Below, piece by piece: positions 2,621-61,559 of a stretch of DNA of 64,000 nt. Origin of the DNA: Isurus oxyrinchus (Eukaryota); assembly GCA_026770705.1 (NCBI GenBank), contig JANJGN010000071.1:992001-1056000 (forward strand), written 5' to 3'. Within the stretch, counting starts at the first letter, position 1. The number at the start of each line of letters is the position of its first letter. A program made the position numbers and the translations under genes. Below the pieces are notes generated by a model. That model saw only the letters and a program-made list of their open reading frames with translations. It did not search any database and was not told the DNA's origin.

Positions 2621-3009
2621 TGTAATAGAAACTTACCTGTCAGAAGCCAGTTTATGTTGATGTGAGTCTGAGTCGATGACTGAACCCAGTTGGTGACTTG
2701 TTCCATACAAAGCAAGAACGTTCATGCCCTTCAATGTTCCTGGATAAACCATGAACAAAGCTGGTGACAGACAGTCTCCACATGGTAAACACTGACCGAT
2801 CAACACATGACATGGCTGTTAACCCCTAAACCTCAGCGTAAATCAGTTCCCCCTCGAGGCCCCTTGTCCGAAATAAAAGCAACGCACACAATTTGTAAAA
2901 TAGTAAGTGTCTGGCAGGAAGGAGGAGCAATGAGAGGAGTAAGGGGTTAGGGGGCGTGCGCTTCACCTGATTTGCCGACATAAGAACCAGCCCCTATGTT
3001 TTTGCTATG

Positions 3010-3297
3010 TTGTGTTGCGTCAATATGAACACATATTTGCACAAGGTGAAGGGCGTTGCGGAGGGACTGATAGTTCTCGGCGCCAGACAGTCAATGTCCC
3101 AGTGACCTTACTGCTGGTCCCAGGCCAGTGGGACAGGGAACATCGACACTGCAATATCCAGAAATGGGTGCGATACCACACAGCTACCCACCCGCGGCTG
3201 TCCCCTTCAAGTGTTTCAGGTATAAGAGCAGGAAGCTCCTCTAGTTACAAACCAAAGCATCAAAGCAGAGCCAGAAGATCAGAAGAGACAGGCAGAG
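3010..3297 (+). promoter_or_regulatory. Promoter of secreted-peptide (hepcidin-like) gene: C/EBP-like sites, GGCGCC BMP/Smad-type element, TATA box
   Basis: TTGCGTCAA 3015-3023, TTGCACAA 3037-3044, GGCGCC 3079-3084 directly followed by AGAC, TATAAGA 3221-3227, ATG at 3298. Confidence 0.5.
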
Positions 3298-3390
3298 ATG
3301 GGAAGCTCCCAGATGAAATGGCGACTTGTCTTGTTCACTCTGACTTTGCTGCTCTCCCTGCAGCTGAGTCACTTCTTCTCCTTGTCGAGG
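3298..3390 (+). CDS. Exon 1 (signal peptide) of a small secreted-peptide gene, hepcidin-like layout: MGSSQMKWRLVLFTLTLLLSLQLSHFFSLSR
   Basis: 93 nt hydrophobic signal peptide ending at donor AGG|GTAAGC in phase 0, downstream of a TATA box. The hepcidin identity is inferred from layout, promoter and neighbourhood, not from the mature peptide. Confidence 0.6.
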
Positions 3391-3589
3391 GTAAGCTGAG
3401 AGATGTCCCTCTGGGTGAGGTGTTTCTTGCACATGACTCTACGTCTACCACCCAGATAGACTGGTCACTTCCGCAGTTTGATATTATTATGTTCGTGCCT
3501 TTAATATTGTCGCCCTCTATGAATTTAACATCATTTCCTTCTGTCATTTCCCCTGAAATTCTCATTCTTGTTTTCAATCCCTCCTCAGC

Positions 3590-3930
3590 CACTCCCTATC
3601 TCTGTAACCTCCTCCAGCCCGTACAACCCTCCCTATCTCTGTAAACTCCTCCAGCCCCTACACCCCTCCCTATCTCTGTAACCTCCTCCAGCCCCTACAA
3701 CCCTCTCTATCTCTGTAACCTCCTCCAGCCCGTACAACCCTCCCTATCTCTGTAACCTCCTCCAGCCCCTACAACCCTCCCTATCTCTGTAACCTCCTCC
3801 AGGCCTTACAACCCTCCCTATCTCTGTAACTTCCTACAGCCCTTACAACCCTCCCTTTCTCTGTAACCTCCTACAGCCTCTACAGCCCTCCCTATCTCTG
3901 TAACCTCCTCCAGCCCCGACAACCCTACCT
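3590..3930. repeat. 34-bp minisatellite (ccctccctatctctgtaacctcctccagccccta)
   Basis: About 10 tandem units visible. Confidence 0.9.
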
Positions 3931-3934
3931 AAAT

Positions 3935-4545
3935 CACTGGTCTGAGTCTCACTCCAGGGAATTCAGTCCCATAATGTAGATCAACGCTCCGTGCTGAGGG
4001 AGTGCTGCACTCTCAGAGGGTCAGTAGTGTGGAAGTGTTGCACTATTGGAGGGACAGTACTGAGGGAGTGCTATACTGTCGGAGGTCAGTACTGAGGGAG
4101 TGCTGCTGTGTCGAAGAGTTAGTACTGAAATAGAGCTGCACTGACGGAGGGACAGTACTGAGGGTGCGCAGCACTATCGAAGGGTTAATACTAAGGGAGT
4201 GCTGCAGTGTCAAAGGGTTAGTACTGAGGGAGCGCAACAATGTTGAATGAGACATTAAACTGAGTCCCCCGTCTGCCCTCTCGGGCGGGTGTGAAAGATC
4301 CCACAGCCACTATTTGGAGGAAGAGCAGGGGGTGTCTCCCCGGTGTCCTGGGACCAATATTTATCCCTCACCCAACATCACCAATAACAGATGATCTAGG
4401 CCATGATCACATTGCTATTTGTGGGATCTTGCTGTGCACAAATCAGCTGCCACATTTCCTACAGTGTGAGTGCACTTCAAAAACATCCTTCAGTGGCTGT
4501 GAAATGCTTTGGGATGTGGTGAAAGGCGTTAGAGAAATGCAAGTC
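3935..4545 (+). mobile_element. Deu-domain SINE (SacSINE1/AmnSINE-like) with internal 33-bp tandem expansion
   Basis: 33-bp agtactgagggagtgctgcactgtc units run into gagacattaaac...aaagatccca...ccggtgtcctgg...ttgtgggatcttgctgtgc, which resembles the Deu domain from memory. Confidence 0.6.
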
Positions 4546-4645
4546 TGTCCTCCTCCCCCTCTCTCTCCTGTACCTCTCTCTCTCTCTCTCCGTCTCCCTC
4601 AATCCTCCTCTCACTTTCTCCCTGATAAATTCTTTCTTTTTGCAG

Positions 4646-4702
4646 GTTGACACTGCTTTAGGTTCTTCGACGATTGAGAAATCTGTGGATTCCCCGGACA
4701 CG
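4646..4702 (+). CDS. Putative exon 2 (pro-region) of the secreted-peptide gene: VDTALGSSTIEKSVDSPDT
   Basis: Polypyrimidine acceptor ttctttctttttgcag| and donor acg|GTAGGT. 57 nt, phase 0-0, open in frame with exon 1. Confidence 0.5.
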
Positions 4703-5469
4703 GTAGGTGGAAATTCATTCCTTATTTTAAGGTTTCTCCCTGCTCGTTTCTTCCACAGAAAGTTTTCTGATTTCAAGCTGATTTCAGTGGCAGTCTGTCT
4801 CGGTTATACTCAGGAGGCATGTTTGAAATCGAGCCCCCCCCCCCTTTTTTTGCAAAGCTGGGAAGAGACAATTCCAAGGAAGTGAACATATCCCCACAGG
4901 AATTTTAAATGTAACCCACGCCGGGAATAGTGAGAGGGAGACTGATCCAGCCTGGGAGTGGGTTAAAGAGAGGCTGGGAGTCGAGAGTCGGAGAGAGGGA
5001 TGGAATGGGGGAGGGAGGGATTGGAAGAGAGAGACAGAGAGTGGGACGGGGAGGGGTGAAAGGGAAAGAACATAGGTGGGAGAGAGTGACAGAGGGAGAA
5101 ATTAAAGAAGAGATGCAGAGTGAGGGAAAGTGAAAAGGGAAGAGAGATTGTCCAAGAGAGAGAAATTAACAGGGAAGGGAGAGTTACAGAGTGAGCGAAA
5201 GGTACAAAAATAGTGTGAGAGAGAGGGAGAGATACTGAGTGGGAGAATGAGACAGGGAGAGAGAGAGAGAGAGAGACAGGAAAAGGGAGAGAGGAGAGAA
5301 AGATTGGGAGAGAGGGCAATTGAGAGGAAGAGTAGGAGAGAGAGAGACAGGGAGAGGAGGAGTGGATGAGAGGAAGAGAGAGAGATATGGAGCAGGAGAA
5401 CACCTCCTCCGGTCCCGATGTTCCTCCAAAATCTCTGACATGACTCGAAGACTTTCAACCAGTGAATAA

Positions 5470-6390
5470 AAATTGTTCCAAACCACCTGAGACCACAGCC
5501 CTCAGTTACTATTCAGCACTTCATCACCCATATCAAACCCTCACCCTACCGCCCAGCATCGAACGGCAGGGCTGAGCAGGGCATCCAAACCTTTAAATCC
5601 AGGGTGAGAAAGATGGAAGGGGCTTCCATCGGCACGAGGTTGTCCCGGTTCCTCTTCACAAACTGGGCTAGGCCACAAACAACGACCAGCATTGGCCCTG
5701 CAGAACTACTAATGAAGAGACATCTCCGCACCCACCTGACCCTTATCCAGCCGGATTTAAAGGGGAGGCTGGAGAAAAGCCAAGAGACGCAGGAGACCAG
5801 GCACGATGGTCATGCTGGGAAAGAACTTTCACTGTGGGAGGTGCAGTCCTCGCGATGAACTATGGAGATGGGTCCAATTGGCTGTTAGGCGAGGTGAGTG
5901 CAGTAACTGGATCCCTCTCCTCTCATGTATCAGTAAACGACATGTGGATCATTTCCCCAAAATAACGCTGGTCCCACAAGAAGAAATGAAGTCTTCATCT
6001 CCACTTGAGTCTGGGCCACATGTAGAGGACAGGTCCCAAAATTTGGAAGGAGAAACATTCGAGAAAGCCTCCTGAGAGACTTGATTTGTAAATAGTTATT
6101 AGTGTAATTAGTTCACTTGTTATTAAGTTTGTCAACTGCACTTTTTAAGTAAAGGGGGAAGGATGTGGTAAAGTGGAGTTCCATGTACAGTTAAGAGAAT
6201 GCAAGTGGATAAACCATGTGACAGTGCTGCCCAATCATTGTACAGTGCGGGCTACTGGTTCACTGTAAGTCTAGAGCTGGAGGTGGGTGTGGGAACATGC
6301 AAAAATTTAGTGCTCTGCCCTCTTGCAATAAATAATCAGCTTGTTCCAATGTCGGTCTCTCTTGGTTATTGATAGCGAGCATCAACTAAC
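5470..6390 (+). mobile_element. Gypsy LTR retrotransposon remnant: integrase C-terminal part, PPT and 3' LTR
   Basis: PYRPASNGRAEQGIQTFK...LSRFLF...PAELLMKRHLRTHL integrase motif. Purine tract aaagggggaagga at ~6151, then a TG-starting LTR containing AATAAA. Confidence 0.75.
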
Positions 6391-6469
6391 AAGTGTATAT
6401 GAAGGAGTGCAATTTGAGTTTACTCAACCAGTGAACTCATAGACTCAAGATATAAAACCAACAAACAGT

Positions 6470-8200
6470 CAGGGAGAGATGGACAATCCAACATGTGATC
6501 ACATTTCAGAGATGTGTAAGAATAATAAAGCAGTAATACTCAGGGATTTTAACTACCCAAATATTAATTGGGACAGCTTTAGTGAGCAAGGTAGGGAGGG
6601 AGAAAAATTCTGAAGTTGCATCCAGGAGAAGATTTTTAGTCTGTGCATAGAAAGCTCAACAAGGGAGGGGACAGTTCTGGACCTAATATATGGAAAAGCG
6701 CAGGGAAAGGTGGAAAGCGTATCAGTAGGGGAGATAGTGACTGTAACTCAATTGGATTTAGGACAGTTATGGAGAAGGATAAGTTTGTGCTGGGAATAAA
6801 AATTCTAAACTGGGGAAAGGCTAATTTTACTAAGATGAGATATGATTGGGCCCAAGTGGACTGGGAGAAGCTCTTTGCAGATAAAACTGTGTCAGAGCAG
6901 TGGGAGGCATTCAAGGAGGGAATAGCGAGAGTACAGAGCAGATATCTTCCTGTAAAGACAAAGAGGGAGACCAAGTCTGGAGAACCCTGGAAGAAAAGGA
7001 ACGTAAAGGTTAGGATTGAGAAAAAAGAGAAGCTTATGGCAGATACTGAGGGCTCAATACAGCAGAGTCCCTAGAGGAGTACAAATAGTGCAGAGGGGAA
7101 CTGAAAAAGGACATTAGGAAAGATAAGCGAGTGCATGAGAAAGCACTGGTGGGTAGAATAAAGCAAAACCCAGAGGGGTTTTTTAAATATGTAAAGAACA
7201 GGAGAATAACTCGGTAAAGAGTGGGGCCGATTAGGGACTATCGAGGTAATGTGTGTGTGGACCTGGAAGACGTGGGTACAGTCCTCAATGAATACTTTGC
7301 ATCAGTCTTCACAATGGAAAAGGATGATGCAGGTATAACATCAGGGTGGAGGACAGTGAAATATGAGAGGAAATTAACACAGAGAGAGGAGGTACTAGTG
7401 GGTTTAGTGGCCTGAAAAGTGGATAAATCCACAAGCCCAGATGAGATGAATCCAAAGCTGTTGAGGGAGGAAAGGGAAGAGATATCAGGGGCCCTGGCAG
7501 TAATTTTCAAATCCTCTCTGGCCACAGGTGAGGTGCCAGAGGACTGGAGGATGGCTGATGTTGTCCCATTATTAAAAAAGGGAGGAAGGGATAGATCAGG
7601 AAATTACAGGCCAGTCAGTCTAACCTCGGTGGTGGGGAAGTTACTAGTAAGAATTCTGAAGGACAGAATGAATCTGCACTGGGAGAGACAAGGATTAATC
7701 TGGGATATTCAGCATGGATTTGTTAAGGGAAGGTCATGTTTGACAAACCTGATCAAATCTTTTGAGGAGGTAACCAGGAGTGTTGATGAGAGTAATGCCT
7801 TTGATGTGGTCGACATGGGCTGAGGAAGGCTTTTGATCAGGTGCCTCTTGGCAGAGAGGCCAAGAAAGTAAGAGCCCATGGGATCCAAGGCAAAGTGGCA
7901 CGTTGGATCCAATATTGGCTGAGGCAGGAAGCAGAGGGTGATGGTGGAGGGATGTTTCTGTGACTGGATGTCTGTTTCCAGTGGGGTTCCACAGGGCTCA
8001 GTGCTGGGGCACTTGCTGTTTGTGGTGTATATAAATGAATTGGACGTAAATATAGGGGGAATGATCACGACGCAAATGGACTTCAACCTGGAAAAATGTG
8101 AGGTGATGCACTTAGGGAGGGAGTTGCTGACCAGAATGGACAAGATGGGCTAAATGGCCTCCTTCTGTCCTGTAAGTGTCTATGAGTCTATGAGTCCATG
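6470..8200 (+). mobile_element. Degenerate CR1 LINE ORF2 (endonuclease/RT fragments)
   Basis: VPEDWRMADVVPLLKKG, NYRPVSLTSVVGK, QHGFVKGRSCLTNL and SGVPQGSVLG motifs with stops and frameshifts. Confidence 0.9.
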
Positions 8201-8367
8201 ATGCACTGTCGGAGAGTCAGTATTAAGGATGTACTGCCTGTCAGGGCTCACTTTTTACCAGTTAAACACCAATGGTTTGTTTATAAACAAAGTGCAGTAT
8301 GTGGGAGCTTGCTGTGCACATTTGATACTATTCCTGCTAATGTAGAATGAAGGGTGTTTGTACTTAC

Positions 8368-8664
8368 ATAGCACAGTTAGTACGAGGGTCCGCTCCGATG
8401 AAACAGATGGATATCTCACTCTGCAGCTGAGAGTGTGTCCGTGGTGTTTGAGTGATGGGATCAGGGTCAGAACAGAAGTATAGGTCAGAGTGACACCATG
8501 CTGAGTTACAGTGTTTGAGACTGATCCAGGTACGTCAGTGGGAGTGTCCCAGGTTAAGACAGGTGCTGCTGTTCCATTGCACGTTGTGTTGAAGGTGCAG
8601 CTTACATCCACACGCTTTCCTGCAATAATTTCAGCAGGGAATATCGTGGGTTTATCTGTGAAAT
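8368..8664 (-). CDS. Siglec-like unit A, C2-set Ig exon (domain 2)
   Basis: 297 nt, AG/GTAAGT flanks, phase 1-1. DFTDKPTIFP...CTFNTTCNGTAAPVLTW...LSCRVRYP...LTVL with the extra Cys typical of Siglec domain 2. Confidence 0.85.
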
Positions 8665-9590
8665 CTAACAGACAGAGAATGGATCCTTTTAGAGAAATAT
8701 AACGTGAAGCATCAGTTCAAATAGAAATCACAGTCCCACAAGAGAAAGCACTTTTACAAGGATGATATCAGAACTGAGAGGTTACAATGATCATTTTAGA
8801 ATTGTCTCTTTTTACACTTGTTGAATCTCTGTCACTCAGATTAATACACTCTCACTCAGTGACCCTTGATTTGACCAGACTGGGTGAGGGTGGAGGAACA
8901 GCTCACAGCTCGGGGAGAACAGACTCAGCATTTGGAAAAGGATATAGAGACACTGGAGAGGGTGGTAAAAAGCTTCACAAGGATGATCTCAGCAATGTGA
9001 GGCTTTACCTATCAGGAGAGGATGTACAGGCTGGGTCTCTGTTCTCTTGAACAGAGAAGGTTGAAGGGTGACCTCATTTGATCTTTCAAGTAGTGAAAGG
9101 TTTTGATCGAGTAGACATGGAACAAATGAACAAAACCAGAGGCTGACAATATAAGATCCTCACTAATAAATCCAATGGGGAATTCAGGAGAAACTTCTTT
9201 ACCCAGAGAGTGGGGAGAATGTGTGCTTCAAGAATCACTTCATTGGCTGTGAATCGATTTAGGATCGTCCTGAGGTGGTGAAAGGCACTATAGGAATGCA
9301 AGTCATTCTGTTGTCAATTTGTGGGAATTTAAAACAGGATTAGAGAGCTTGATAAGATTGGATAACCTGATAACACTGATGGACACACTCAATCTATTTA
9401 ATCATTGATATTAAAGTGAGTATTAGAGGTTGCTTTAGGACTGAACTGGAAGCTATCACCAGGTTATTGAGAATCAGACAGTGTGTTACAATAAGCTTTG
9501 TTTTGTGTTAATATGTAAACGTCACAGTTTGTGTTATTTCCCATTGAGTGTTGGATGTGAATTGTTGAGTAATTATAACACAGCACTTAC

Positions 9591-9959
9591 CAGAAATGTG
9601 AAGCCGGGTTACAGGGTAATAGTTGTAGTTATTTGTACTTCCAAATTCTATTCTGAAAAAATAAGATCCTGCATCTTCCCGTCTGATGTTGTTTATAATC
9701 AGGGAACAGTCGCCATCTTTCAGGTCTCCAGACAGCTGGGTCCGATGGCGGAACCTTGGTAACTCGTGACTGTGATCCTTGGAGTGAAAGGCAAAGGGAT
9801 TGTCGAATTTGTGTTTCTCGTTATTAAACCAGATTCCGACTCGTGGTTGGCTTTCCAAATGTGCTGGATAACTGTAATGACACGGAATCTGTACACACGA
9901 ACCTTCCTGCGCTGTCACCTCTTGTGGAGTGTCACCTTTCCACTCTTGTGACAGTCCAA
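9591..9959 (-). CDS. Siglec-like unit A, V-set Ig exon with essential Arg
   Basis: 369 nt, AG/GTAAGT flanks, open. QEGSCVQIPC...W...DCSLIINN...DAGSYFFRIE Siglec signature. Confidence 0.9.
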
Positions 9960-10882
9960 CTGGGGAGAGAAATATCTATATTTAATTCTGGATCCTCAAT
10001 GTCAACTGAATCTTCATTGTCACTTCATTGTCTAAGGAATCTCTTTGGATCCTCATTGTCTAATGGATTATTTCTGATCCAAACCCCATATTGTTGTATT
10101 GTTGATTCCGATGCAGCATTGTAGACTGACTTGTCCCCAAGCTCAGCACTGACCCTACTCCAGCAGACACTGTGAAACACACTAACAAAGTGCCTCTAGC
10201 CTGAGCTCTGCATGTGTCAAGAGCAAAGACAAATATACAAACTGAATATTGACCCCTTTACACACGGACAGCTTTGCCTTCCTTCTCTCTTTCAGTTATC
10301 TTGCTCCCTTATTGAAGTATCTAGCAAGGTGAGAATGGACAGGAAGTGTGACACTGAACAGCCTGTCTATTCTAGGAGCTGCTGTGTTGTCTTCATGGGA
10401 AATTCTGACTAAAATCAGCAAAAGACACTAATTTCAGGCCATTGCTGTCAGACCCTCAGCATCAAGTTAGACTTCATCCCCTGAATTTTGCGTCCGATTT
10501 TCTACTCAAACTTTCACCTCCCCAAACCTCCACCCCGACCCCACAAGTGACTCGATGACCTACACTGGCTCCCAGTCCAGCAATGCCTCGATGTGATTAT
10601 TTTTACACTTGATTTCCAATCCCTCCATTACTCCGCTACACTCCCTGTCTCTGTAACCCCCTCCAAACCTACAACCCTCTGTGATCTCTGCACTCCTCCA
10701 ATTCTGCTGTCAGACAGGGAGTCAGTGTATATCAGTGAGCACAGGGGTGATGGGTGAATGGGACTTGGTGTGAGATTGTACACTGGCACACTGCTGAATC
10801 GGTTTCCTATCAGAGCTCAATAAGAATGGTCTTATACAAACACTATTAACCATAAATCTGTCCAAGTTGACGATGATATTAC

Positions 10883-10922
10883 CTTGGAGAAGAGACAGGA
10901 GGAAGTAAGATTTCCCGATCAT
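10883..10922 (-). CDS. Siglec-like unit A, leader exon (MIGKSYFLLSLLQ)
   Basis: 40 nt coding, donor CAAG|GTAATA in phase 1, joins the V exon in frame. Acceptor at 10955. Confidence 0.8.
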
Positions 10923-11366
10923 CGTCCACTCTCAGGTATTTCATTCGCTCTCAAACTGTGATAGAGAAAGGAGTTAATGAGACCTCACCTCTTGTCCGAC
11001 TGCTCTCGAGAGATCAGAACTGCTTTTAGACAATGTCTTCACAGACCTAATTTGACTCTCTGTGGGATGATAGGTGCTCTGTAGAGAGTTACAAGGCTTT
11101 AAGGAAGAAAAACAACGATGAACTTGCATTTCTTTAGCACCTTTCACCACCTCAGGATGTCCCAAAGCTCATGTCTCTGCACTTCCCTCATCCCTTGAGC
11201 TAGAAAGATGTTCTGTACAACAGACTTGAGCCTCACACCCAGATCTCAATAATCAGTAGAAATCTTTCAAAGGCATCAATCATTGGAATCTGTCTTTATA
11301 AAGTCACAACATCAACAAAGGACGGTGTTGGTCGTGGAAGTGAATTCCAATCGTTCCGTTACTTAC

Positions 11367-11510
11367 CCAGGACCTGTCCGACTGCTCGCCTGGGGAGGTA
11401 CTGCCCACACGCTCTGCTTGGGCTGAATGACCTCTTCCTGTGCTGCTCCCTCTGTGTATTTAATTAGAAAGGGTTGATGTGTCTCTGTGAGACAAAATGA
11501 GGAAGTCAGA
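11367..11510 (-). promoter_or_regulatory. Unit A promoter (PU.1/Ets-like aaatgaggaagt) and non-coding first exon
   Basis: Block conserved upstream of every leader exon, ending cctgg|GTAAGT. Confidence 0.55.
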
Positions 11511-11719
11511 TCAAAGTGACAGAGCAGCTGATGTTTTGAGTTTTTTGAAGCTGTTAACCCTTTGCGTTCTGGACTTGTGATGATATTTCTGCTCAAAAGT
11601 GGAAAGTCATTGACCAGGAATTTCTCCTGTGGGTCACTGGGTTTCGAACCCTCTCTCACTCTCTGAGTGGATGGTCACCTGTTCGAGATTCATTTGGCAA
11701 AATTCAGGCTGGCAAACCA

Positions 11720-12380
11720 GATCAGCACTCAGTGTCAGGACTGAGAGTCCTGCACAATCGGAGGGTCAGTACTGAGAGAGAGCTGCACTGTTGGAGGGTG
11801 AGTATTGAGGGAGTGCTGCATAGTCAGAGGGTCAGTACTGAGGGAGTGCTGCAAGGTCAGAGGGTCAGTGCTAAGAGAGAACTGCACTGTCAGAGGGTCA
11901 GTACAGAGGGAGTGCTGCACAATCGGAGCGTCAGTACTGAAGGAGTGCTGCACTGTCAGAGGGTCAGTACTGAGGGAGTACTGCACTGTTGGAGGGTCAG
12001 TACTGAGGGACTGTTGCACTGTGAGAGGGTCAGTACAGAGGTAGAGCTGCACTGTCAGAGGGTCAGTACTGAGGGAGTGCTGCACTGTCAGAGGGTCAGT
12101 ACTGAGACAGAGCTGCACTGTCAGATGGTCAGTACTGAGGGAGTGTTGCACTGTGGGAGGGTCAGTACTGAGAGAGTGCTGCACAGTCGGAGGGTCAGTA
12201 CTGAGGGAGTGCTGCACAATCGGAGGGTCAGTACTGAGGGAGTGCTGCACGGTCGGAGGGTCAGTACTGAGGGAGAGCTGCACTTTCGGAGGGTCAGTAC
12301 TGAGGGAGTGCTGCACTGCTGGAGGGTCAGTACCGAGGGAATGCTGCACTGTCGCAGGCTCAGTACCGAGGGAATGTAAA
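11720..12380. repeat. 33-bp SINE-derived minisatellite (gagggtcagtactgagggagtgctgcactgtca)
   Basis: About 20 tandem units that produce spurious repetitive ORFs. Confidence 0.92.
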
Positions 12381-15889: not shown

Positions 15890-16006
15890 AAGAAAGATGA
15901 GAAGGATCTGGAAATGAAATCTAACCGCGGAGTCAATCCTGATACAGATGATGATCTTTACGCAAACTGTGAATTTGCCAAGGATTCTGTTTATGGGAAT
16001 TTATAA
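15890..16006 (+). CDS. Orphan terminal cytoplasmic exon with tyrosine motifs: KKDEKDLEMKSNRGVNPDTDDDLYANCEFAKDSVYGNL*
   Basis: Acceptor tttctattacag|, open in phase 0 to TAA. Contains DLYANC and SVYGNL (fits ITIM consensus S-x-Y-x-x-L). No upstream + strand TM exon found in the window. Confidence 0.6.
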   Translation, partial: KKDEKDLEMKSNRGVNPDTDDDLYANCEFAKDSVYGNL

Positions 16007-18990: not shown

Positions 18991-19069
18991 TTCAACCACA
19001 TTCTTGGCACGCACAGGGTTAGCAGTTTTCTAACAGTGCGAGGCAAAGAGCTGCTTTCTCACTTGGTAC

Positions 19070-19939
19070 CAAGCACTTCCTCATTTTGACTCACAGTGAC
19101 ACATCCACCCTTTTTAATTAGACACAAATAGGGAGCAGCACAGGAAGAGGTCATTCAGCCCAAGCAGAGCGTGTGGGCAGTTCCTCTCCAGGCGAGCAGT
19201 CGGACAGGTCCTGGGTAAGTAACGGAATGATTGGAATCCACGGGGGGAGTTCTGAGGGCTCCTAATCCATTGTCCTGTCTTGTAAATCAGCACCTTAATA
19301 CTGACCCTTCAACAGTGCAGCACTCCCTCAGTACTGATCCTCCAACAGTGCAGCACTCCCTGATAAATATCCATCTGACAGTGCAGCACTCCCTCAGTAC
19401 TGACCCTCCAACAGTGCAGCACTCCCTGATAAATGTCCCTCTGACAGTGCAGCACTCCCTCAGTACTGACCCTCAAACAGTGGAGATCTCCCTCAGTACT
19501 GACCTTACAATAGTGCAACACTCGCTCAGTAATGACCATCCGACAGTGCAGCACTTGCTCAGTACTGACACTGGGGAGTTTCAGTCTACTCTGTGGGGCA
19601 GACGTCCCCTGAATGGGGTCTTGAACCCCACAACATTCTGACCCCCTGAATTTGGCTGTGAAACCCACTGACCCACAGGAGAAATTCCTGGTCAATGACT
19701 GTCCACCTGTGAGCAGAAATATCACCACAGGGTCAGGACACAAAGGGTTAACAGTTCACCAACATCTCAAAACATGAGCTGCTCTGTCACTTTGATCCAA
19801 CTTCCTCATTTTGACTCACAGAGACACATCCACCCGTTCTAATTGAACACACAGAGGGAGCAGCACAGGAAGAGGTCATTCAGCCCAAGCAGAATGTGTG
19901 GGCAGTTCCTCCCCAGGCGAGCAGTCGGACAGGTCCTGG
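19070..19939 (+). promoter_or_regulatory. Two tandem copies of the Siglec promoter/non-coding exon (donors after 19214 and 19939) separated by a 33-bp minisatellite (19290-19570)
   Basis: Direct sequence match to the other units. Both copies end cctgg|GTAAGT and carry acttcctcatttt. Confidence 0.6.
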
Positions 19940-20363
19940 GTAAGTAACGGAACGATTGGAATTCACTTCCACCACCAACACCGTCCTTTGTTGATGTTGT
20001 AACTTTATAAAGACAGATTCCAATGATTGATGCCTTTGAAAGATTTCTACTGATTATTGAGATCTGGGTGTGAGGCTCAAGTTGTACAGAATATCTTTCT
20101 AGCTCAAGGGTTGAGGGAAGTGCAGAGACATGAGCTTTGGGGCATCCTGAGGTGGTGAAAGGTGCTATAGAAATGCAAATCCTTCATTGTTTGTCTTTCT
20201 TAAAGCCTTGTAACTCTCTGCAGAGCACCTATCATCCCACAGAGAATCAAATTATTCTGTGAAGACATTGTCTAAAAGCAGTTCTGATCTCTCGAGAGCA
20301 TTCGGACAAGAGGTGAGGTCTCATTAACTCCTTTCTCTTTCACAGCTTGAGAGTGAGAAGTGG

Positions 20364-20424
20364 ATGGAATATCTGAGAGTGGACAATGATCGGGAAATCT
20401 ACTTCCTCTTGTCACTTTCCCAAG
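20364..20424 (+). pseudogene. Unit B leader exon with 1-nt deletion; no Ig exons follow
   Basis: gggaaatct-acttc lacks one T relative to paralogs, so the normal ATG is frameshifted and the upstream ATG reads MEYLRVDNDREIYFLLSLSQ. Intron homology stops at ~20980, before the V exon. Confidence 0.65.
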
Positions 20425-21991
20425 GTAATATCATCATCAGCTCAGACAGATTTATGTTTAACAGTCTTTGTAAAAGAACATTCTTATCTCTTTTTCTCTG
20501 TAACCTCCTGCAACTCACCCAATCAACTTCCCAGATCTCTGTGTTACTCCAATTCCGGCCTCTTGACCATCCCCCGATTCCCATCACTCCAATACTGGCG
20601 GCCGGGCCTTCAGCTGCCTGGGGCCTGAGCTCTGGAATTCACTCCCTAAACCTCGGGGATGGAGGAGATCAGAGGGTTTCATTTTACTGAGAATCACCAC
20701 GACCACATCACAGCTGCAGTGAGAATAGACAGAGAGTCCAGCCCTCACACTTCCTGCACAGTTTCACCATAGCAACCACAATATGGAAATTTAAAAATAC
20801 TGAAAGTTAAACTGAAGCTCAAACCAGTCAGTGTAGAGAGATGAGATGTTTACACAGTTTCCCTGTGTATCTTGTAGACACTGTGTTGGGTGGAAGACTG
20901 GCTTCACTAAACAGGGTCCTGAGGACCATGAGCCAATGTAGAATGACCTTGTCCACTCCTGTGTCCAGGATTCTCTTCATCAGATTTAAATCATTTCTCA
21001 AACGGTAATTTTGATGAGTCATTTTATTGAAAACTTCCTCAGCGCCTCCCTGAAGGGTTTACACTCTCCGGGAAGCAGGAATAGGCTGGATGTTGGGGAG
21101 TTCATCTTTTCCCAGAGAGTAGGGATCCTCGGGAATGTGCTGTCAGTGGGTGTGGTGGTTGCTGATTCTCTGTCACCTTCAAGAGGGATCTGGAGTGGTT
21201 ACTCACTGGGGGAGAGATCATGGAAGCGGAGGATGATACAGCACAGGAGGAGGCCATTCAGCCCATTGTGCCTGTGCCAGGTCTTTCGATAATCTATCCA
21301 ATCAGATCCACTAACCACCACTCCACTTTGCCCCCATCTTCCTCCTTCAAGTGTTTATACAATTCCACTTTTGAAAGTTCCTATTGAATCTGCTTCCACC
21401 GCCCTTTCAGGCAGCACCTTCCAGATCACAACAACTCGCTCTGTCAAAACAAATTCTCCTCATCTCCCCCTCCAGTTCGTCAATCTGTGTCCCTCTGGTT
21501 ACCGACCCTCCTGCCTCTTAAATACATCAATACTGTTCACCTCAACCACTCCCTGTGGGAGCGAGTTCCACATTCTCCCCTCTCTCTGGGTAAAGATTGG
21601 AACTGTTTATTAAGCGGGGGGTGTAAGTCCGTGGGGGAGTCCATCTCGATCCTGCCCGATTCGCACACGCGTCCGAGATGGATTTCCACCCTGCACTAAA
21701 TGTTTCCAGAATTTTCTACAGCACAATCCTGTACACAGCGATGGAGAGAAACATTGGACAGGGAGTCCAACAGCACAATGATCCATTCTCACCAATGTTC
21801 CACGCTAAGGGGAAAGTTCCGATTGTACACTCTTAGAGTGTTTACAATGAAAACATTCATTCCACATTGAATCCCAGTGGATGGGTCAATATTACAGCAA
21901 ATGTTGCAGTGATATGAAGCTTGATTGTTCAACCAGAGTGAGAGATTGAAAGCGGAGAGTCAGTGATGATTTCTTTCTGTGTGTTCTCTAG

Positions 21992-22131
21992 ACAGTGGAG
22001 GAGAGATTCTGCACGTGATCCTGATCCTGGGAATACGAGCTGTGATATTCCTTGTGGCTGTGGTTATCACTATCGCTGGAGTCTGTGTCTGGGAGAGACA
22101 AACAGTGAAAGGAAGTCGACAGCCTGTTTGA
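21992..22131 (+). CDS. Unit B Arg-containing transmembrane/short-tail exon (activating type)
   Basis: Acceptor gttctctag|, phase 1. SGGEILHVILILGIRAVIFLVAVVITIAGVCVWERQTVKGSRQPV*. Confidence 0.65.
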
Positions 22132-22259
22132 AGCTTTGTACAGCAACAATCTGGTCAGTCAGTGCGGACAAATAACGTGTGATGTTGGGTTAAGTTGTAA
22201 TGAAACTGGTCAGTGTCCTGGTTAGAATCACCTTTGTATCAGAGAGGCATTCCAACACA

Positions 22260-22840
22260 GTGGGAGACCATTCAGCCCATTGAGCCCATGCTGTCTCTCT
22301 GTAGAGCAATCCACTCAGTCCCATTCCCCCGCTCGATCCCCGTATCCCTGCAAGTTTATTTCCCCTCAAGTGTCCAACCAATTTCCTTTTGAAATCGTTC
22401 GTCTCCACTTCCACCATCCTCGTAGGCAGCGAGTTCCAGCTCATTACCACTCGCTGTGTAAAAAAGTTCCTCCTCACATCCCCCTCTGCCCAAAACCTTC
22501 AATCTGTGTCCCCCAGTCCTTGTACCATCAGCTAATGGCAACAGCTTCTCTTTGTCTGCCTTATCTAAACCCATCATCATCTTGTACACCTCGATCAGAT
22601 CCCCCCTCAATCTCCTTTGCTCCAAGGAGAACAACCCCAGCTTCTCCAACCCAACCTTGTAGCTAAAATCCCTCATCCCTGGACCCATTCTGCTCAATCT
22701 CCTCCCCACCCTCTCAAGGACCCTCACTTCCTTCCCAAAGTGAGGAGACCAGAACTGGACACAATACTCTAGTTGTGACCTAACCAGAGCTTTATAAATG
22801 TTCAGCATAACCTCCCTGTGTTTGTACTCAATCCCTCGAT
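22260..22840 (-). mobile_element. CR1 LINE 3' fragment, co-duplicated at 31180-31780 and 40000-40600
   Basis: RGIEYK...YKALVRSQLEYCVQFWSP...LGLFSLEQRRLRGDLIEVYK. Confidence 0.9.
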
Positions 22841-23554
22841 TTATGAAAAGCTTATTCTTTCCATCAGCACAAACAGCAATTTCCAAGCGGACTCCCATCA
22901 GCAGACAGAGTGCAATGAAACATCGGCATGCCTGCTTCTTAATGTACGGAGAGAAACCTGGAACGAGAGATTCTCCTTCTTCTCCTCAGCAAGCTGAAAC
23001 TTTTCCTTATACCTGGTGCTCCCCAGTCCTGCTGTGTGGACACATCATAACCACGGCATTGTCTGGCTGTGTGCAGCCAACATGGTCGAATAGGAATGAA
23101 CAGAAATGTGACGTTGCTAAACTCTGTTCTCTGATTGGAATGTGCTTTCTGAATGCTGCACCTTTTTCATGCTGCGATAGATTGTAAGAAGCATTTGGGT
23201 TATGAATAAAATTACATTGATTAACACAAGTGATTAAAATGCTCAGCCTGTTCTGTAGATACTTATGGATTAAAATTCTTATTTTGCTGCCAGATTCTTG
23301 GCTCAAAGACATTACTTCATGTTGTCACTTTTTCCAGTCAGATGAATTCCTGTGCCCATCTTTATAATGGAAATTTTCAATGTAAACACGTCACATTGCA
23401 GCTGCACACAATTGCCAGTGGGTGGTGTGATATCAAAGCTGTCTTGCTGCTCAGAAAGAGAGAGAAATATTCCTGATAAATGCATGAACTTCATGTGTGC
23501 ATCAGACACTGACATCAGATGCAATTTTGTGCAATTTGTGCAATGTATTTTAGA

Positions 23555-35823: not shown

Positions 35824-38800
35824 ATGATCGGGAAATCTTACTTCCTCCTGTCGCTTCTCCAAGGTAATACCATCGTCAGCTCGGACAGATTTATGGTGAA
35901 TAGTCTTTGTAAAAGATCATTCTTATTGAGCTGTGATTGGGAACTGATTCAGCAGTGAGCCAGTGTACAAACTCACACCAAGTCCCATTCACCCATCACC
36001 CCTAAACTATCTGACTCCTGGTCCTACAACATCTCAAACTTAAAATTCACATCTCTTTGTTCAAATGCATCCATTGCCTCACACTGCCTCCTTATCTCTG
36101 TAACCTCCTGCAACTCTCCCAACCAACGCCCCAGATCTCTGTGTTACTCCAATTCCGGCCTCTTGACCATCCCCCGATTCCCATCACTCCAATACTGGCG
36201 GCCGGGCCTTCAGCTGCCTGGGGCCTGAGCTCTGGAATTCACTCCCTAAACCTCGGCGATGGAGGAGATCAGAGGGTTTCATTTTACTGAAAACCACCAC
36301 GACTACATCACAGCTGCAGTGAGAATAGACAGAGAGTCCAGCCCTCGCACTTCCTGCACAGTTTCACCATAGCAACCATAATAAGGAAGTAAAATAACTG
36401 AAAGTTAAACCGAAGACAAACCAGTCAGTTTAGAGAGATGAGATGTTTACACAGTTTCCCTGTGTGTCTTGTAAACACTGTGTTGGGTGGAAGACTGGCT
36501 TCACTAAACAGGGTCCTGAGGACCATGAGCCAATGTAGAATGAAGTTGTCCACTCCTGTGTCCAGGATTCTCTTCCATCCATTATGAAACCCCTGGGGAG
36601 TTCCATGTGTGTCCTGTAGATGGTCCACACTGCAGCCAATGTGCCCCAGTGATGGAGGGGGTGGATATCGAGTCTAGTGGATCTACAAACCATCCAGAGT
36701 TAAATATTGATATTTCTCTCCCCAGTTGGACTGTCACAAGAGTGGAAAGGTGACACTCCACGAGAGGTGACAGCGCAGGAAGGTTTGTGTGTACAGATTC
36801 CATGTCATTACAGTTATCCAGCACATTTGGAAAATCAACCACGAGGTGGAGTCTGGTTTAATAATGAGAAACAGATTCCCTGGGCTCCCATAGCCTTTCA
36901 CTCCAAGGATCACAGTCGCGAGTTACCACGGTTCCGCCATCGGACCCGGCTATCTGGAGACCTGAAAGATGGCGACTGTTCCCTGATTATAAACAACATC
37001 AGACGGGAAGATGCAGGACCTTATTTTTTCAGAATAGAATTTGACAATGGTCCGGGCCATAACTATTACCCTGTAACCCAGCTTCATGTTTCTGGTAAGT
37101 GCTGTGTTATAATTACTCAACAATTCACATTCAACACTCAATGGGAATTAACACAAACTGTGATGTTTACATATTAACACAAAACACAGCTTGTTTTAAC
37201 ACATTGTCTGATTCTCAATAACCTGGTGATGGCTTCCAGTTTAGTCCTAAAGCAACATCTAATACTCACTTTAATATCAATGATGAAAAGCATTAACTGT
37301 ATTATCAGGTTATCCACTCCCATCAATCTCTCCTGTCCTGTTTAAAAGGCTGACGTATCGATAAAAGAAAGATGTGCATTTCTGCTGCGCAATTTACCAC
37401 CTCAGGAGGATCCAAATCCCTTCACAGCCAATGAAATTATTCCTGAATTGTAGTCACAGATGTTAAACACAGCAGGCAGTTTGTGCACAGCAAGATCCAA
37501 CAAACACAATGTAATAAATCACCCAGATCACTGAGGAAATGAGAAGCCAGTGAACTCAAACCTCTGGTCTGATGAAGAGTCATACGGACTCAAAACGTTA
37601 ACCCTGTCTTCCTCTCCACTGATACTGTCAGACCTGCTGAGTCTTTCCAGCAATTTTTGTTTTGGTTTCAGATTTCCAGCATCCGCAGTATTCTGCTTTT
37701 AACTCCAATCTCTGGTCTGAGCCTCTTCTCTCATCCAGTGTTCTCAATTCACATGTCTCGGAGTGAACGTGTATTAAGCTGAGAGACAGAAACACTACTG
37801 CCAAAGAGCAAGAAAATATTTCCTGATCATTGTAACCTCTCAGTTCTGATATCATCCTTGTAAAAGTGCTTTCTCTTGTGGGACTGTGATTTCTATTTGA
37901 ACTGATGCTTCACATTATATTTCTCTAAAAGGATCCATTCTCTGTCTGTTAGATTTCACAGATAAACCCATGATATTCCCTGCTGAAATTATTGCAGGAA
38001 AGCATGTGGATGTAAGCTGCACCTTCAACACAACGTGCAATGGAACAGCAGCACCTGTCTTAACCTGGGACACTCCCACTGACGTACCTGGATCAGTCTC
38101 AAACACTGTAACTCAGCATGGTGTCACTCTGACCTATACTTCTGTTCTGACCCTGATCCCATCACTCAAACACCACGGACACACTCTCAGCTGCAGAGTG
38201 AGATATCCATCTGTTTCATCGGAGCGGACCCTCGTACAAATCGTGCAAGGTAAGTACGGACACCCTTCATTCTACATCAGCACTCCCTCAGCGCTGACCC
38301 TCTGACAGTGCAGCCTGTTCTCAGTATCCATATTCTCAGGCCACTCAAAGTGCTTCACAGTCGTTAGAAGTTAACTGATCTTTAATTGATTATTGCTGAA
38401 GAAGTGACAAGCTGTTTAAACTTTACGGCTCACACACATTATTTTCCATGGCAACACCTCCTCTAATCAGAGACCACTTGCCAACCAATCAGCACTCTCT
38501 TCCCTTTAAATATAAATTGTTGTTCATTTTCTGTTGGTAAACCTGCGAGCTGTCTTGTTGAGTCCTGCCCTGACATCTCAATGTCACAATGAACAGAACA
38601 AGTTCCAACAATGAGCTGTGGTTGGTGATTCCTCATGTTACATCCAGGGACACTGGAGACTATCAGTGTGTGGCAGAGAATGAACATGGAGCAGTGGAGG
38701 TGTCCATAACCATCACTGTGGAACGTGAGTGTGCACAGACTTCAACATCACTCTCAGGTTCAAACACTACACAAATACACACAAATATACAGACCTAAGC

Positions 38801-39976
38801 AGACACCTGCAGACACACAATCCCACATGTATGAGCACACACAGAAACACACTCACAAACAAACACCCTATCACATACTGCCCTGTGGGTTACCTGACCT
38901 CCCTCAGTGCTGCACCGGAGTATTGACCTAGATTCTGGGTTTTGTGTTCCCTTTCATATTTATGGAAGAATATGGAAATTGCAAGGTCTATTACAGACAC
39001 TCAGATGCACAGGGATACTCACAGATACACTCTGCCTCTCCAACTCTCTATCCTCCTTTAAGAAGTTTCCTGAAACCTAATCCTTTGACCAGTCACCTGT
39101 CCTAACTCCTCTTACGTGATTTTGTGTGAAATTTTGTTTGAGTATCTGAGAATAAGAGGGAAGTGGAGAGGTTTAGGAAGGGAATTCCTGTTGCTGAAAA
39201 GCTTACATCAAGTTCTCAGCTTTCCAGTGCCCATTTTTCACATGATGTCCATGTTCATAATGGGGATTGCCTATGTAAACATCACGCTGTAGTTACACTC
39301 TCCCACCAGTGGTGGCACGGTAACACTTAACCCTTGCATCTCCAGCTTTTCAAGCAATTTCCCTTCCTAATTTGCTACTATTCACCTCGACCACTCCCAG
39401 TGGGAGCGAGTTCCACATTCTCCCCTCTCTCTGGGTAAAGATTGGAACTGTTTATTAAGCGGGGGGTGTAAGTCCGTGGGGGAGTCCATCTCGATTCTGC
39501 CCGATTCGCACACGCGTCCGAGATGGATTTCCACCCTGCACTAAACGTTTCCAGAATTTTCTACAGCACAATCCTGTACACAGCGATGGAGAGAAACATT
39601 GGACAGGGAGTCCAACAGCACAATGATCCATTCTCACCAATGTTCCACGCTAAGGGGAAAGTTCCGATTGTCCACTCTTAGAGTGTTTCCAATGAAAACA
39701 TTCATTCCACATTGAATCCCAGTGGATGGGTCAATATTACAGCAAATGTTGCAGTGATATGAAGCTTGATTGTTCAGCCAGAGTGAGAGATTGAAAGCGG
39801 AGAGTCAGTGATGATTTCTTTCTGTGTGTTCTCTAGACAGTGGAGGAGAGATTCTGCACGTGATCCTGATCCTGGGAATACGAGCTGTGATATTCCTTGT
39901 GGCTGTGGTTATCACTATCGCTGGAGTCTGTGTCTGGGAGAGAAAAACAGTGAAAGGAAGTCGACAGACTGTTTGA
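35824..39976 (+). CDS. Unit E: activating-type Siglec-like receptor, join(35824-35863,36726-37094,37953-38249,39837-39976), ~281 aa, V + C2 + Arg-TM
   Basis: Canonical AG/GT sites, phase-1 junctions, no internal stops. Essential Arg in PYFFRIE. TM ILILGIRAVIFLVAVVITIAGVCVW and tail ERKTVKGSRQTV* with no Tyr. Non-coding exon donor after 35373. Confidence 0.78.
36726..37094 (+). CDS. Unit E V-set Ig exon
   Basis: 369 nt, CVQIPC...DCSL...YFFRIE. Confidence 0.9.
37953..38249 (+). CDS. Unit E C2-set Ig exon
   Basis: 297 nt, AG/GTAAGT, open. Confidence 0.88.
38572..38724 (+). pseudogene. 5'-truncated copy of the third Ig (C2) exon
   Basis: HLNVTMNRTSSNNELW...DYQCVAENEHG...ITVE|GTGAGT matches the 3' half of 51229-51510. 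The first Cys, Trp and acceptor are missing. Confidence 0.8.
39837..39976 (+). CDS. Unit E Arg-containing transmembrane/short-tail exon
   Basis: Acceptor gttctctag|. Third copy of the TM exon. Confidence 0.72.
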
Positions 39977-44310: not shown

Positions 44311-47300
44311 ATGATCGGGAAATCTTACTTCCTCCTGTCACTTCTCCAAGGTAATATCATTATCAGCTCGGACAGATTTATGGTGAATAGTCTTTGTAAA
44401 AGATCATTCTTATTGAGCTGTGATTGGGAACCGATTCAGCAGTGAGCCAGTGTACAAACTCACACCGAGTCCCATTCACCCATCACCCCTAAACTATCTG
44501 TCTCCTGGTCCTACAACATCTCAAACTTAAAATTCACATCTCTTTGTTCAAATGCATCCATTGCCTCACACTGCCTCCTTATCTCTGTAACCTCCTGCAA
44601 CTCTCCCAACCAACGTGCCAGATCTCTGTGTTACTCCAATTCCGGCCTCTTGACCATCCCTCGATTCCCATCACTCCAATACTGGCGGCCGGGCCTTCAG
44701 CTGCCTGGGGCCTGAGCTCTGGAATTCACTCCCTAAACCTCGGCGATGGAGGAGCTCAGAGGGTTTCATTTTACTGAAAACCACCACGACTACATCACAG
44801 CTGCAGTCAGAATAGACAGAGAGTCCAGCCCTCGCACTTCCTGCACAGTTTCACCATAGCAACCACAATAAGGAAGTAAAATAACTGAAAGTTAAACCGA
44901 AGCCAAAGCAGTCAGTTTAAAGAGATGAGATATTTAAACAGTTTCCCTGTGTATCTTGTAGACACTGTGTTGGGTGGAAGACTGGCTTCACTAAACAGGG
45001 TCCTGAGGACTATGAGCCAATGTAGAATGAACTTGTCCACTCCTGTGTCCAGGATTCTCTTCCATCCATTATGAAACCTTGGAGAGTTCCATGTGTGTCC
45101 TGTAGATGGTCCTCACTGCAGCCACTGTGCTCCAGAGATGGAGGGGGTGGATATCGAGTCTAGTGGATCTACAAACCATCCAGAGTTAAATATTTGATAT
45201 TTCTCTCCCCAGTTGGACTGTCACAAGAGTGGAAAGGTGACACTCCACGAGAGGTGACAGCGCAGGAAGGTTCCTGTGTACAGATTCCATGTCATTACGG
45301 TTATCCAGCACATTTGGAAAACCAACCGCGAGGTGGAGTCTGGTTTAATAATGAGAAACAGATTCCCTGGGCTCCCATTGCCTTTCACTCCAAGGATCAC
45401 AGTCATGAGTTACCACGGTTCCGCCATCGGACCCGGCTCTCTGGAGACCTGAAAGATGGCGACTGTTCCCTGATTATAAACAACATCAGACGGGAAGATG
45501 CAGGACCTTATTTTTTCAGAATAGAATTTGACAATGGTCCGAGCCATAACTATTACCCTGTAACCCAGCTTCATGTTTCTGGTAAGTGCTGTGTTATAAT
45601 TCCTCAACAATTCACATTCAACACTCAATGGGAAATAACACAAACTGTGACGTTTACATATTAACACAAAACACAGCTTATTATAACACACTGTCTGATT
45701 CTCAATAACCTGGTGATAGCTTCCAGTTCAGTCCTAAAGCAACGTCTAATACTCACTTTAATATCAATGATGAAAAGCATTAACTGTATTATCAGGTTAC
45801 CACACCCATCAATCTCTCCTGTCCTGTTTAAAAGTCTGACGTATCGATAAAAGAAAGATGTGCATTTCTGCTGCGCAATTTACCACCTCAGGAGGATCCA
45901 AATCCCTTCACAGCCAATGAAATTATTCCTGAATTGTAGTCACAGATGTAAAACACAGCAGGCAGTTTGTGCACAGCAAGATCCAACAAACCACAAGGTG
46001 ATAAATCACCCAGATCACTGAGGAAATGAGAAGCCAGTGAACTCGAACCTCTGGTCTGATGAAGAGTCATACGGACTCGAAACGTTAACCCTGTCTTCCT
46101 CTCCACTGATACTGTCAGACCTGCTGAGTCTTTCCAGCAATTTTTGTTTTTGTTTCAGATTTCCAGCATCCACAGTATTCTGCTTTGAACTCCAATCTCT
46201 GGTCTGAGCCTCTTCTCTCATCCAGTGTTCTCAATTCACATGTCTCGGAGTGAACGTGTATTAAGCTGAGAGACAGAAACACTACTGCCAAAGAGCAAGA
46301 AATTCTTTCCTGATCATTGTAACCTCTCAGTTCTGATATCATCCTTGTAAAAGTGCTTTCTCTTGTGGGACTGTGATTTCTATTTGAACTGATGCTTCAC
46401 ATTATATTTCTCTAAAAGGATCCATTCTCTGTCTGTTAGATTTCACAGATAAACCCATGATATTCCCTGCTGAAATTATTGCAGGAAAGCATGTGGATGT
46501 AAGCTGCACCTTCAACACAACGTGCAATGGAACAGCAGCACCTGTCTTAACCTGGGACACTCCCACTGACGTACCTGGATCAGTCTCAAACACTGTAACT
46601 CAGCATGGTGTCACTCTGACCTATACTTCTGTTCTGACCCTGATCCCATCACTCAAACACCACGGACACACACTCAGCTGCAGAGTGAGATATCCATCTG
46701 TTTCATCGGAGCGGACCCTTGTACTAACTGTACAAGATAAGTACTGACACCCTTGATTCTATATTAGCTGTAATAGGATACAATGTGCAGAGCAAGATCC
46801 CACAAACATCACTGGGTTGAAGACAAAACAGGTCCTTTTTTATTAGTGATATTGACCAGGGAGAGCTCTTCCTGTACTGAGCCTTGGGATTGTTTGTGCC
46901 TACCTGATAGGGCAGAGGGGGCCAAGGTTGAACTTAAAAGACAATATAGGATAATATAAATATTGTCTTCATTGATGTCAAAGATTTTGGGGGAGATGTA
47001 GTATAAAAGTTTAATATTAACAATGTAAATAGATAGTATTTATCATCAGTTACTCAAGGTCACATGAGAATAGAACACGGAGAGAGATAGTTCTATAGAT
47101 ACCTAGGTACATAGAAACTAGGAGCACGATTAGGACATTCAGCCCTTCAAGCCTTCTCCGCCATTCAATATGATCAAGGCTGACCCTCTATCTCAAAGCC
47201 TTATTCCCGCTTTCTCTCCGTACCCTTTGATGCCCCTAATATCAAAATATTTATCAGTTTCTTTCTTGAATACACTCAGTGACCCGGCCTCCACAGCCTC

Positions 47301-57280: not shown

Positions 57281-57472
57281 GTGTGAAACAGGGAGCGGGG
57301 CTGTGGGGTGTGTGCAGCCAGCATGGTCAAATAGTAATGAACAGAAATATGATGTTGCTCAACTTTTTTTATTGGCTCTGAGTGAGCTTTCTGAATGCTG
57401 CACCTTTTTCCATGCTGTAAAAGATTGCGAGAAGCTTTTGGGTTATGTATAATTTTACATCTGTTAATACAA

Positions 57473-60490: not shown

Positions 60491-61559
60491 GGACGGTGAG
60501 TCTCAGGGAGGCTGGCCCAACCCCAGACGCAGCCGTCTCTGTGACCTGCTTCAACCCTGTGAGTCAGCAATGACAACATGAGTTGATGTTAGCCTGATAT
60601 GTAGTGCATGGAGGGATATTACTCTCCAGGGTGTGTGTGCATCACAGTGCTCATTCACATGTGTTCCATGTGCACCTACATCAGCTGTGTAGACATACAA
60701 GCCTCAATGCTGCATCCGGGGAATGTGCCATGTCTCACACCTTAGCTGCAGCACGACCCTTCCCTTGGAGCTCTGTGTGCTCGAGACATATTTTGTTATT
60801 TTTTCCTGCCGTCTCTGTGTCCCCCGACCCGGGAGTGAAAATCCGGCCTTAACTTCCACTTTCTAGTGTCTGAGACAAGAGGCAATGAGTGAGTGGGCTG
60901 ACGGTCAGGATTAATGCTGTTAATCTGTGTTTGAGGGGCTGTGAATTCTCGGGGGACTAGTTACTCTCTGAGCTGCAGCTTCCAATTCCTTATTTGATGC
61001 CGTGCATGTGGGGTTGGAAGATTTTTTTTAAAACCACAGGCAGTTCACAGAAACCCACAGGAAACCCACAGAGAGACAGTCACTGAGAAAGTCACTCACT
61101 CCTTGTGGTTTCACCTTTTAACCACATCCTGTCTGTGTGGCTTAAATGTTAAACACAGTGGCCAGACTCAAGGAGGTTTCACTCTGTNNNNNNNNNNNNN
61201 NNNNNNNNNNNNNNNNNNNNNNNNNNNNNNNNNNNNNNNNNNNNNNNNNNNNNNNNNNNNNNNNNNNNNNNNNNNNNNNNNNNNNNNNNNNNNNNNNNNN
61301 NNNNNNNNNNNNNNNNNNNNNNNNNNNNNNNNNNNNNNNNNNNNNNNNNNNNNNNNNNNNNNNNNNNNNNNNNNNNNNNNNNNNNNNNNNNNNNNNNNNN
61401 NNNNNNNNNNNNNNNNNNNNNNNNNNNNNNNCTTACAGACAGACACAAACACACACATTCACACACACACACACATTCACTCACACACACACATTCACTC
61501 ACACACTCACTCACACACACAAACACACACACAAAGACAATATCCAAACGACAACAAAC

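Follow-up and report, generated by a model that had tools for sequence, protein, structure and literature searches.

A predicted hepcidin gene assembled without its mature-peptide exon beside a Siglec cluster in Isurus oxyrinchus

Hepcidin genes of sharks and other vertebrates

Mammalian HAMP and teleost HAMP1 are outlined as three-exon genes in which the mature peptide is encoded wholly by exon 3 (PMC3325200). In mouse, the reported gene order is Usf2-Hamp-Hamp2-Mag-Cd22, consecutive and on a single strand (PMC12847941), and the GGCGCC motif of hepcidin promoters is presented as a BMP-responsive, SMAD-binding element (PMC3879105, PMC3203580). The ferroportin cysteine required for hepcidin binding is described as first appearing in cartilaginous fish (PMC8235187). 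As for sharks themselves, one study reports hepcidin in nurse shark plasma and, by its account, the protein set of the whale shark lacks an orthologue (PMC9207270). Our search for literature on hepcidin and sharks, with most subscription journals outside its reach, found no paper devoted to shark hepcidins. The proteins are nevertheless already annotated in databases; what is new here is the truncated state of one such gene as assembled.

Protein searches returned named hepcidins from Scyliorhinus canicula (two proteins, hepcidin-2-like), Mustelus asterias (hepcidin-1) and Heterodontus francisci (hepcidin-1), plus two unnamed shark-like proteins; nine weaker unnamed matches were excluded from every count of shark relatives. 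The named proteins are complete (83-88 aa, 8 Cys), have the same length layout as the gene described here and share 21-32 of its 50 prepro residues. With the basking shark protein introduced below, all seven complete shark relatives have 8 Cys and are Pfam-positive, and a profile of three shark hepcidins found the solved hepcidin 1m4f as its best PDB match (E 0.002). Compared with that structure, five of the seven shark mature peptides have four extra residues, basic in character, between Cys 5 and Cys 6. The Scyliorhinus pair is identical at 47/50 prepro residues, and its mature peptides differ, one having 29 aa and a net charge of +5 and the other 25 aa and a net charge of +1, with His moved from position 3 to 4. 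By sequence, this suggests a shark-specific duplication in which the ferroportin-binding end may have diverged.

The promoter and first two exons

We analysed a 64-kb stretch of Isurus oxyrinchus DNA, called the window throughout. Near its start lie the following features.

3015-3022, minus strand: putative C/EBP-type site TGACGCAA, a pattern match
3037-3044, plus strand: putative C/EBP-type site TTGCACAA, a pattern match
3079-3093, plus strand: putative BMP-responsive-element-like GGCGCC (3079-3084) with AGAC adjoining, a motif match
3221-3226, plus strand: TATA-like box TATAAG, 77 nt 5' of the ATG
3298-3390, plus strand: coding part of hepcidin exon 1, 93 nt, 31 aa, open frame, GT donor at 3391
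3391-4645, plus strand: intron 1, 1255 nt, GT-AG
4646-4702, plus strand: hepcidin exon 2 (propeptide), 57 nt, 19 aa, AG acceptor with a 73% pyrimidine tract, GT donor
4703-5385, plus strand: start of intron 2, unique sequence, then purine-rich, with a GA-rich tract at 5217-5385 at its end

Exon 1 encodes a basic N-terminus, a hydrophobic stretch (9-residue hydropathy peak 2.73) and the start of the propeptide, and so resembles a signal peptide. All junctions of the two exons are in phase 0, exon 2 being 0/0. Intron 1 contains minisatellites with a 37-bp unit at 3592-3931 and a 33-bp unit at 3994-4232; its 1255 nt compare with about 100 nt in teleosts. A strong phase-0 acceptor stands on the plus strand at 4759, 56 nt past the exon 2 donor; it yields three residues and a stop, and is probably too near that donor for use.

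Searching 5.8 billion proteins with the exon-1 frame gave two candidates, of 31-100 aa, both isoforms of basking shark (Cetorhinus maximus) LOC144671611 and both labelled uncharacterized (E 1e-7). Isoform X2 is identical at 29/31 exon-1 and 16/19 exon-2 residues, 45/50 overall, and this 90% identity suggests that the two sharks are close relatives. Beyond residue 50, X2 has another 38 residues, encoded by a third exon that the window lacks; they hold a furin-type site and then an 8-Cys peptide, and the resulting 88-aa prepropeptide scores 44.8 bits against Pfam Hepcidin PF06446 (cut-off 27). The locus retains its uncharacterized label although X2 is a hepcidin. The mature N-terminus of X2 resembles that of sea bass Hamp1, outlined as the iron-regulatory form, and not that of Hamp2 (PMC5665920).

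These comparisons bear on the gene model as well as on its identity. In the basking shark protein, the stretches that match exon 1 and exon 2 adjoin without a gap, which supports the predicted 3390>4646 splice. The placement of the exon 2 donor is independently backed, because the three isoforms of LOC144671611 diverge exactly past residue 50. Taken by homology, then, the feature is almost certainly the promoter plus exons 1-2 of a hepcidin (HAMP) gene. That it might be an unrelated small secreted peptide sharing only hepcidin's layout is hardly credible, for although exons 1-2 alone matched no Pfam family and exon 1 found no usable match in the protein-cluster Atlas, 45/50 residues are shared with a Pfam-positive hepcidin and the exon boundaries agree.

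Much of what the earlier note had proposed from the letters therefore carries over: its 93-nt and 57-nt phase-0 exons have open frames and canonical splice sites, its hepcidin-like layout proves to reflect homology to a Pfam-positive protein, and the sequel that it had named as support, a furin site followed by an 8-Cys peptide, is found in isoform X2. Its other option, a different small secreted peptide, is essentially excluded by the same 45/50 identity. The description 'unannotated' also fits, as neither candidate is encoded by the window. In other sharks, the family does carry annotation. The word 'paralog' is not borne out: the closest relative gave a single hepcidin locus, and the feature could itself be the orthologue. 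Within the window, the promoter and exons 1-2 are present in one copy, and the protein searches returned no hepcidin closer than that of the basking shark.

Upstream of the exons, the TATA box, GGCGCC with AGAC and C/EBP-like sites named earlier are all present (at 3221, 3079 and 3015/3037). The label C/EBP follows the consensus, and we regard both sites as putative; the window has 3 and 9 copies of the two patterns. TATAAG is common (82 in the window) and weak alone. GGCGCC occurs once in the window, about 220 nt 5' of the ATG, a count within chance (shuffle mean 1.71; at least one copy in 80/100 shuffles). It is informative by its placement near the ATG and not by the window-wide count, the expectation per 300-bp proximal stretch being about 0.008 by arithmetic from the shuffle mean. 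The same site is the only one-mismatch GGCGCC-N5-GTCT composite in the window, where 1.37 are expected by chance. CpG observed/expected reaches 0.57-0.63 at 2801-3200 versus 0.29 for the whole window.

The promoter thus shares the GGCGCC element with mammalian HAMP, as the latter is outlined in PMC3879105. The human HAMP promoter has a STAT site near BRE1, whereas none of the eight exact TTCN3GAA matches in the window falls before 15129, leaving the first 15 kb without this exact pattern (degenerate sites lie outside the count). Over the whole window, the eight exact matches compare with 22.5 expected from shuffles.

The missing third exon and its surroundings

Exon 3, with the convertase site and the entire mature peptide, is absent from both strands of the window. 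The searches covered the 64 kb minus 1090 N bases. With tblastn and local alignment, the best score for exon 3 was 43, compared with 39-55 in 30 shuffles and 224 for the self match; an exon-3 HMM run with stops read as X peaked at 4.7 bits in the window, while 7/7 leave-one-out controls scored 61-86 bits. A back-translated nucleotide profile of exon 3 that allows indels reached 29.8 of 159 in the window, while the exon-2 control scored 61.2 of 73.5. This control fades with distance (a catshark-only exon-2 score of 26.8 against a background of 23.6), and a very old remnant could escape it. Within 4703-5385, the profile's best was 19.8 of 159, a level equalled in 22/182 bins. A six-frame scan for RxxR followed by a Cys-rich stretch gave 15 matches, none hepcidin-like, and the RX(K/R)R convertase site of hepcidin, encoded by exon 3 in relatives, was not found in the window. 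The lack of an RxxR plus Cys-rich exon, first noticed downstream, proves to hold on either strand of the entire window.

Three stretches were considered as traces of exon 3 and set aside: an AATAAA at 5465, as a leftover of its 3' UTR, falls inside the Gypsy gag-like match; a minus-strand stretch near 10298 scores 2.5 bits and lies inside sequence homologous to the 5' region of other Siglec units; and 4759-4830, as a decayed exon, is at background level. None of the 13 candidate acceptors listed past exon 2 gives hepcidin. As assembled, the locus cannot make hepcidin, and could produce only a signal/propeptide stub with a cryptic ending. By descent, as read from homology, the feature is a hepcidin gene fragment, but the assembled two-exon unit is not classed as a functional member of the family, because the furin site and 8-Cys peptide were tested for and not found.

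Downstream of exon 2, the window contains the following.

5386-6395, plus strand: Gypsy-type fragment with gag-like interior (from 5442), integrase-end region and 3' LTR; LTR limits set by eye
6420-8201, plus strand: 5'-truncated LINE remnant (Pfam RVT_1, E 1e-7, at 7416-7820); start set by eye
8273-12376, minus strand: opposite-strand Siglec unit with upstream region, V-set exon (9957-9592) and C2 exon (8662-8372)
15890-16006, plus strand: orphan Siglec-type cytoplasmic tail exon, phase 0, 38 aa, two tyrosine motifs
19009-23472, plus strand: Siglec unit with a TM exon and no V or C2
26912-28623, plus strand: Siglec unit whose V exon has a stop and whose C2 exon is frameshifted
36728-39952, plus strand: Siglec unit with V, C2, partial third Ig exon and TM
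45215-57280, plus strand: long Siglec unit, comprising four Ig exons, TM and a tail with two tyrosines
50435-50814, 61188-61431, 62357-62679 and 63764-63906: four N-gaps of 143-380 nt, mostly beside simple repeats

The Gypsy, LINE and opposite-strand Siglec sequences reported earlier are all where they were claimed to be. The names Gypsy, C/EBP, CR1 and ITIM, as we use them, rest partly on consensus patterns; the LINE remnant, whose 3' tail is an octamer repeat at 8178-8201, is presumably a CR1 element. The Gypsy fragment is similar by tblastx to a second Gypsy at 12.4-15.2 kb. No second LTR copy that could serve as its 5' LTR was found upstream (99/108 versus 91-104 in shuffles and 472 for self), and the left edge of the similarity is unpinned at the DNA level (score 108, shuffle maximum 122). 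LTR elements insert whole; because the 5' part is lacking here, DNA is missing at 5385-5442, through deletion or misjoin, and we regard this junction as the candidate break. It contains no Ns, the sequence being contiguous from exon 2 to the Siglec unit. The 5' LTR of the second Gypsy was likewise not found. That a single Gypsy was split by an inversion was considered and rejected, as the two fragments share the plus strand and an inverted half of an LTR was not found.

On the minus strand, no TM or tail exon follows the Siglec unit at 8273-12376, and in the window no plus-strand Ig or TM exon was found upstream of the tail at 15890. This tail shares 11/17 residues with the tail at 57032 and is followed by poly(A) signals at 16776, 16944 and 17122. 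It has the phase of hepcidin exon 2 and, by coincidence, the 38-aa length of the missing exon 3. The arrangement fits either of two readings: an inversion of the 5' half of the first Siglec with losses at both ends, or two convergent genes whose 3' ends were both removed by one loss at 5.4 kb.

The remaining cluster (19-57 kb) lies on the plus strand, as hepcidin does, and its V-set exons match Siglec-5/7, CD33 and MAG. The units from 19009 to 57280 are a tandem cluster in birth-and-death, with stops, frameshifts and internal deletions among them. Hepcidin-Siglec linkage, reported also for mouse (PMC12847941), is thus present on the downstream side; of the upstream side, where USF2/LSR would be expected, the window spans 3 kb. 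Near its other end, tandem copies of 0.8 kb at 61568-62349 and 62986-63762 are 78% identical, each followed by an N-gap, and have no long ORF; Rfam gave 0 matches. The irregular N-gaps suggest a scaffolded short-read assembly.

The basking shark isoforms put the opposite-strand Siglec unit in perspective. Read antisense, the 5' region of the Siglec units matches the last exon of X1 at 4 loci (75-86% over 23-56 aa), indicating that the basking shark, which has kept exon 3, likewise has an opposite-strand Siglec segment 3' of exon 2. Because the basking shark has both, the opposite-strand unit alone is no proof of what removed exon 3. The endings of X1 (antisense Siglec) and X3 (LINE-like) look like cryptic last exons. 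A LINE piece at 57470 was considered as the orthologue of the X3 last exon and rejected, the first half of that exon being absent.

Origin of the break and its meaning

The explanation that we favour, at about an even chance, is that the animal carries an intact gene and that the break or misjoin belongs to the assembly, exon 3 being either left out of it or located in another part. The sequence jumps within intron 2, from the GA tract into the Gypsy interior, and the fault would lie in assembling a Siglec region rich in repeats and duplicates. In the animal, BMP-SMAD and C/EBP input would act on the promoter to give an 88-aa prepropeptide in the liver; the signal peptide would be removed, a furin-type protease would cleave after RxKR, and the ~29-aa 8-Cys peptide would be expected to bind ferroportin and lower iron export. 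The state of the gene agrees with this: its frames are open, splice sites canonical, promoter motifs kept and CpG raised, exon 3 has left no decayed remnant, and one locus was returned for the closest relative. So does the state of the assembly, with its four irregular N-gaps, duplicates up to 97-98% identical, and both discontinuities in repeats. Counted on the same side are the nurse shark, with hepcidin in plasma, and the whale shark, whose protein set is reported to lack an orthologue (PMC9207270).

Several observations pull against an assembly break. The junction is free of Ns, the headless minus-strand Siglec and the orphan plus-strand tail resemble a real inversion with losses at both ends, and no hepcidin nearer than that of the basking shark was returned. 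True deletions and pseudogenes exist among the neighbouring Siglec units, and with two hepcidins in Scyliorhinus, truncated duplicates are plausible. The differences from the basking shark that can be polarised with an outgroup, at positions 8, 31 and 39, all fall on the window lineage (3 versus 0, not significant). Two of these positions are columns invariant in six other full-length proteins, one protein with an aberrant N-terminus having been left out, which hints, short of significance, at relaxed constraint.

Several of these observations count in favour of a truncated duplicate or pseudogene, which we consider possible, if on the doubtful side. Exon 3 would have been lost by deletion or inversion, an intact paralogue elsewhere would supply hepcidin, and any transcript of this copy would encode only a signal/propeptide stub. 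The gap-free junction, the Gypsy entered inside gag with no 5' LTR, the complementary halves of the broken Siglec, the three lineage-specific changes and the 47/50 identity of the Scyliorhinus pair all speak for a duplicate. Yet this copy shows no stop, frameshift or splice decay and keeps its promoter motifs, a single locus was returned for the basking shark, and the window holds no second promoter or exon copy. The earlier phrase 'truncated by rearrangement' describes the assembled sequence correctly, in which exon 3 is absent and intron 2 jumps into a Gypsy; the rearrangement may be biological or an assembly error.

A very long intron 2, with exon 3 past the window end or in an N-gap and Siglec sequence nested within the intron, is unlikely. 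Basking shark X1 and X3 do join exon 2 to other last exons, and cryptic last exons may often sit in long introns. However, the intron would have to contain over 40 kb of Siglec exons on its own strand, along with their acceptors and poly(A) signals, the teleost intron 2 is given as 118-191 nt (PMC3325200), and the LINE piece at 57470, lacking the first half of the X3 exon, indicates a different insertion.

Decidedly unlikely is a true loss, in which this is the only hepcidin of the animal and the lineage, without mature hormone, has a ferroportin with no ligand. Exon 3 is absent, without remnant, from the window, the closest relative returned one locus, and conserved columns have changed in this lineage. 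However, the evidence covers 64 kb only, the hepcidin-ferroportin pair is outlined as conserved from cartilaginous fish onward (PMC8235187), and hepcidin has been wrongly called absent before, from fish, in a statement in PMC4453067 that is contradicted by PMC3325200 and PMC5665920. Just as improbable is the fuller scenario that a rearrangement on the border of an expanding Siglec cluster truly cost the shark the mature-peptide exon of its sole hepcidin, whose still-intact BMP/C-EBP promoter may now drive a secreted Siglec-tail chimera.

Such a chimera, with exons 1-2 spliced in phase 0 to the tail at 15890 to give an 88-aa secreted protein without the Cys scaffold, is itself very improbable. 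The tail has the right strand and phase, an acceptor with 16/22 pyrimidines, a 38-aa open frame and poly(A) signals, and splicing of exon 2 to cryptic last exons is seen in the basking shark; but of the 13 acceptors listed, 12 others lie nearer with as many pyrimidines or more, a tail with tyrosine motifs has no evident extracellular role and no usable relative in the Atlas, and the 4702>15890 splice is a prediction from sequence features.

We describe the locus as an ordinary gene with a break that may lie in the assembly or in the genome. If exon 3 is found elsewhere, this is simply one further shark hepcidin; a true loss, which would make this a naturally hepcidin-null jawed vertebrate, would carry far greater weight but is unlikely. 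For the family, the comparison identifies the 'uncharacterized' LOC144671611 of the basking shark as a mislabelled hepcidin. The locus further suggests that both the BMP element of GGCGCC type and the linkage of hepcidin to Siglecs were already in place in cartilaginous fish, whereas it shows no canonical STAT3 site. This makes the order in which the iron and inflammatory control of hepcidin originated testable.
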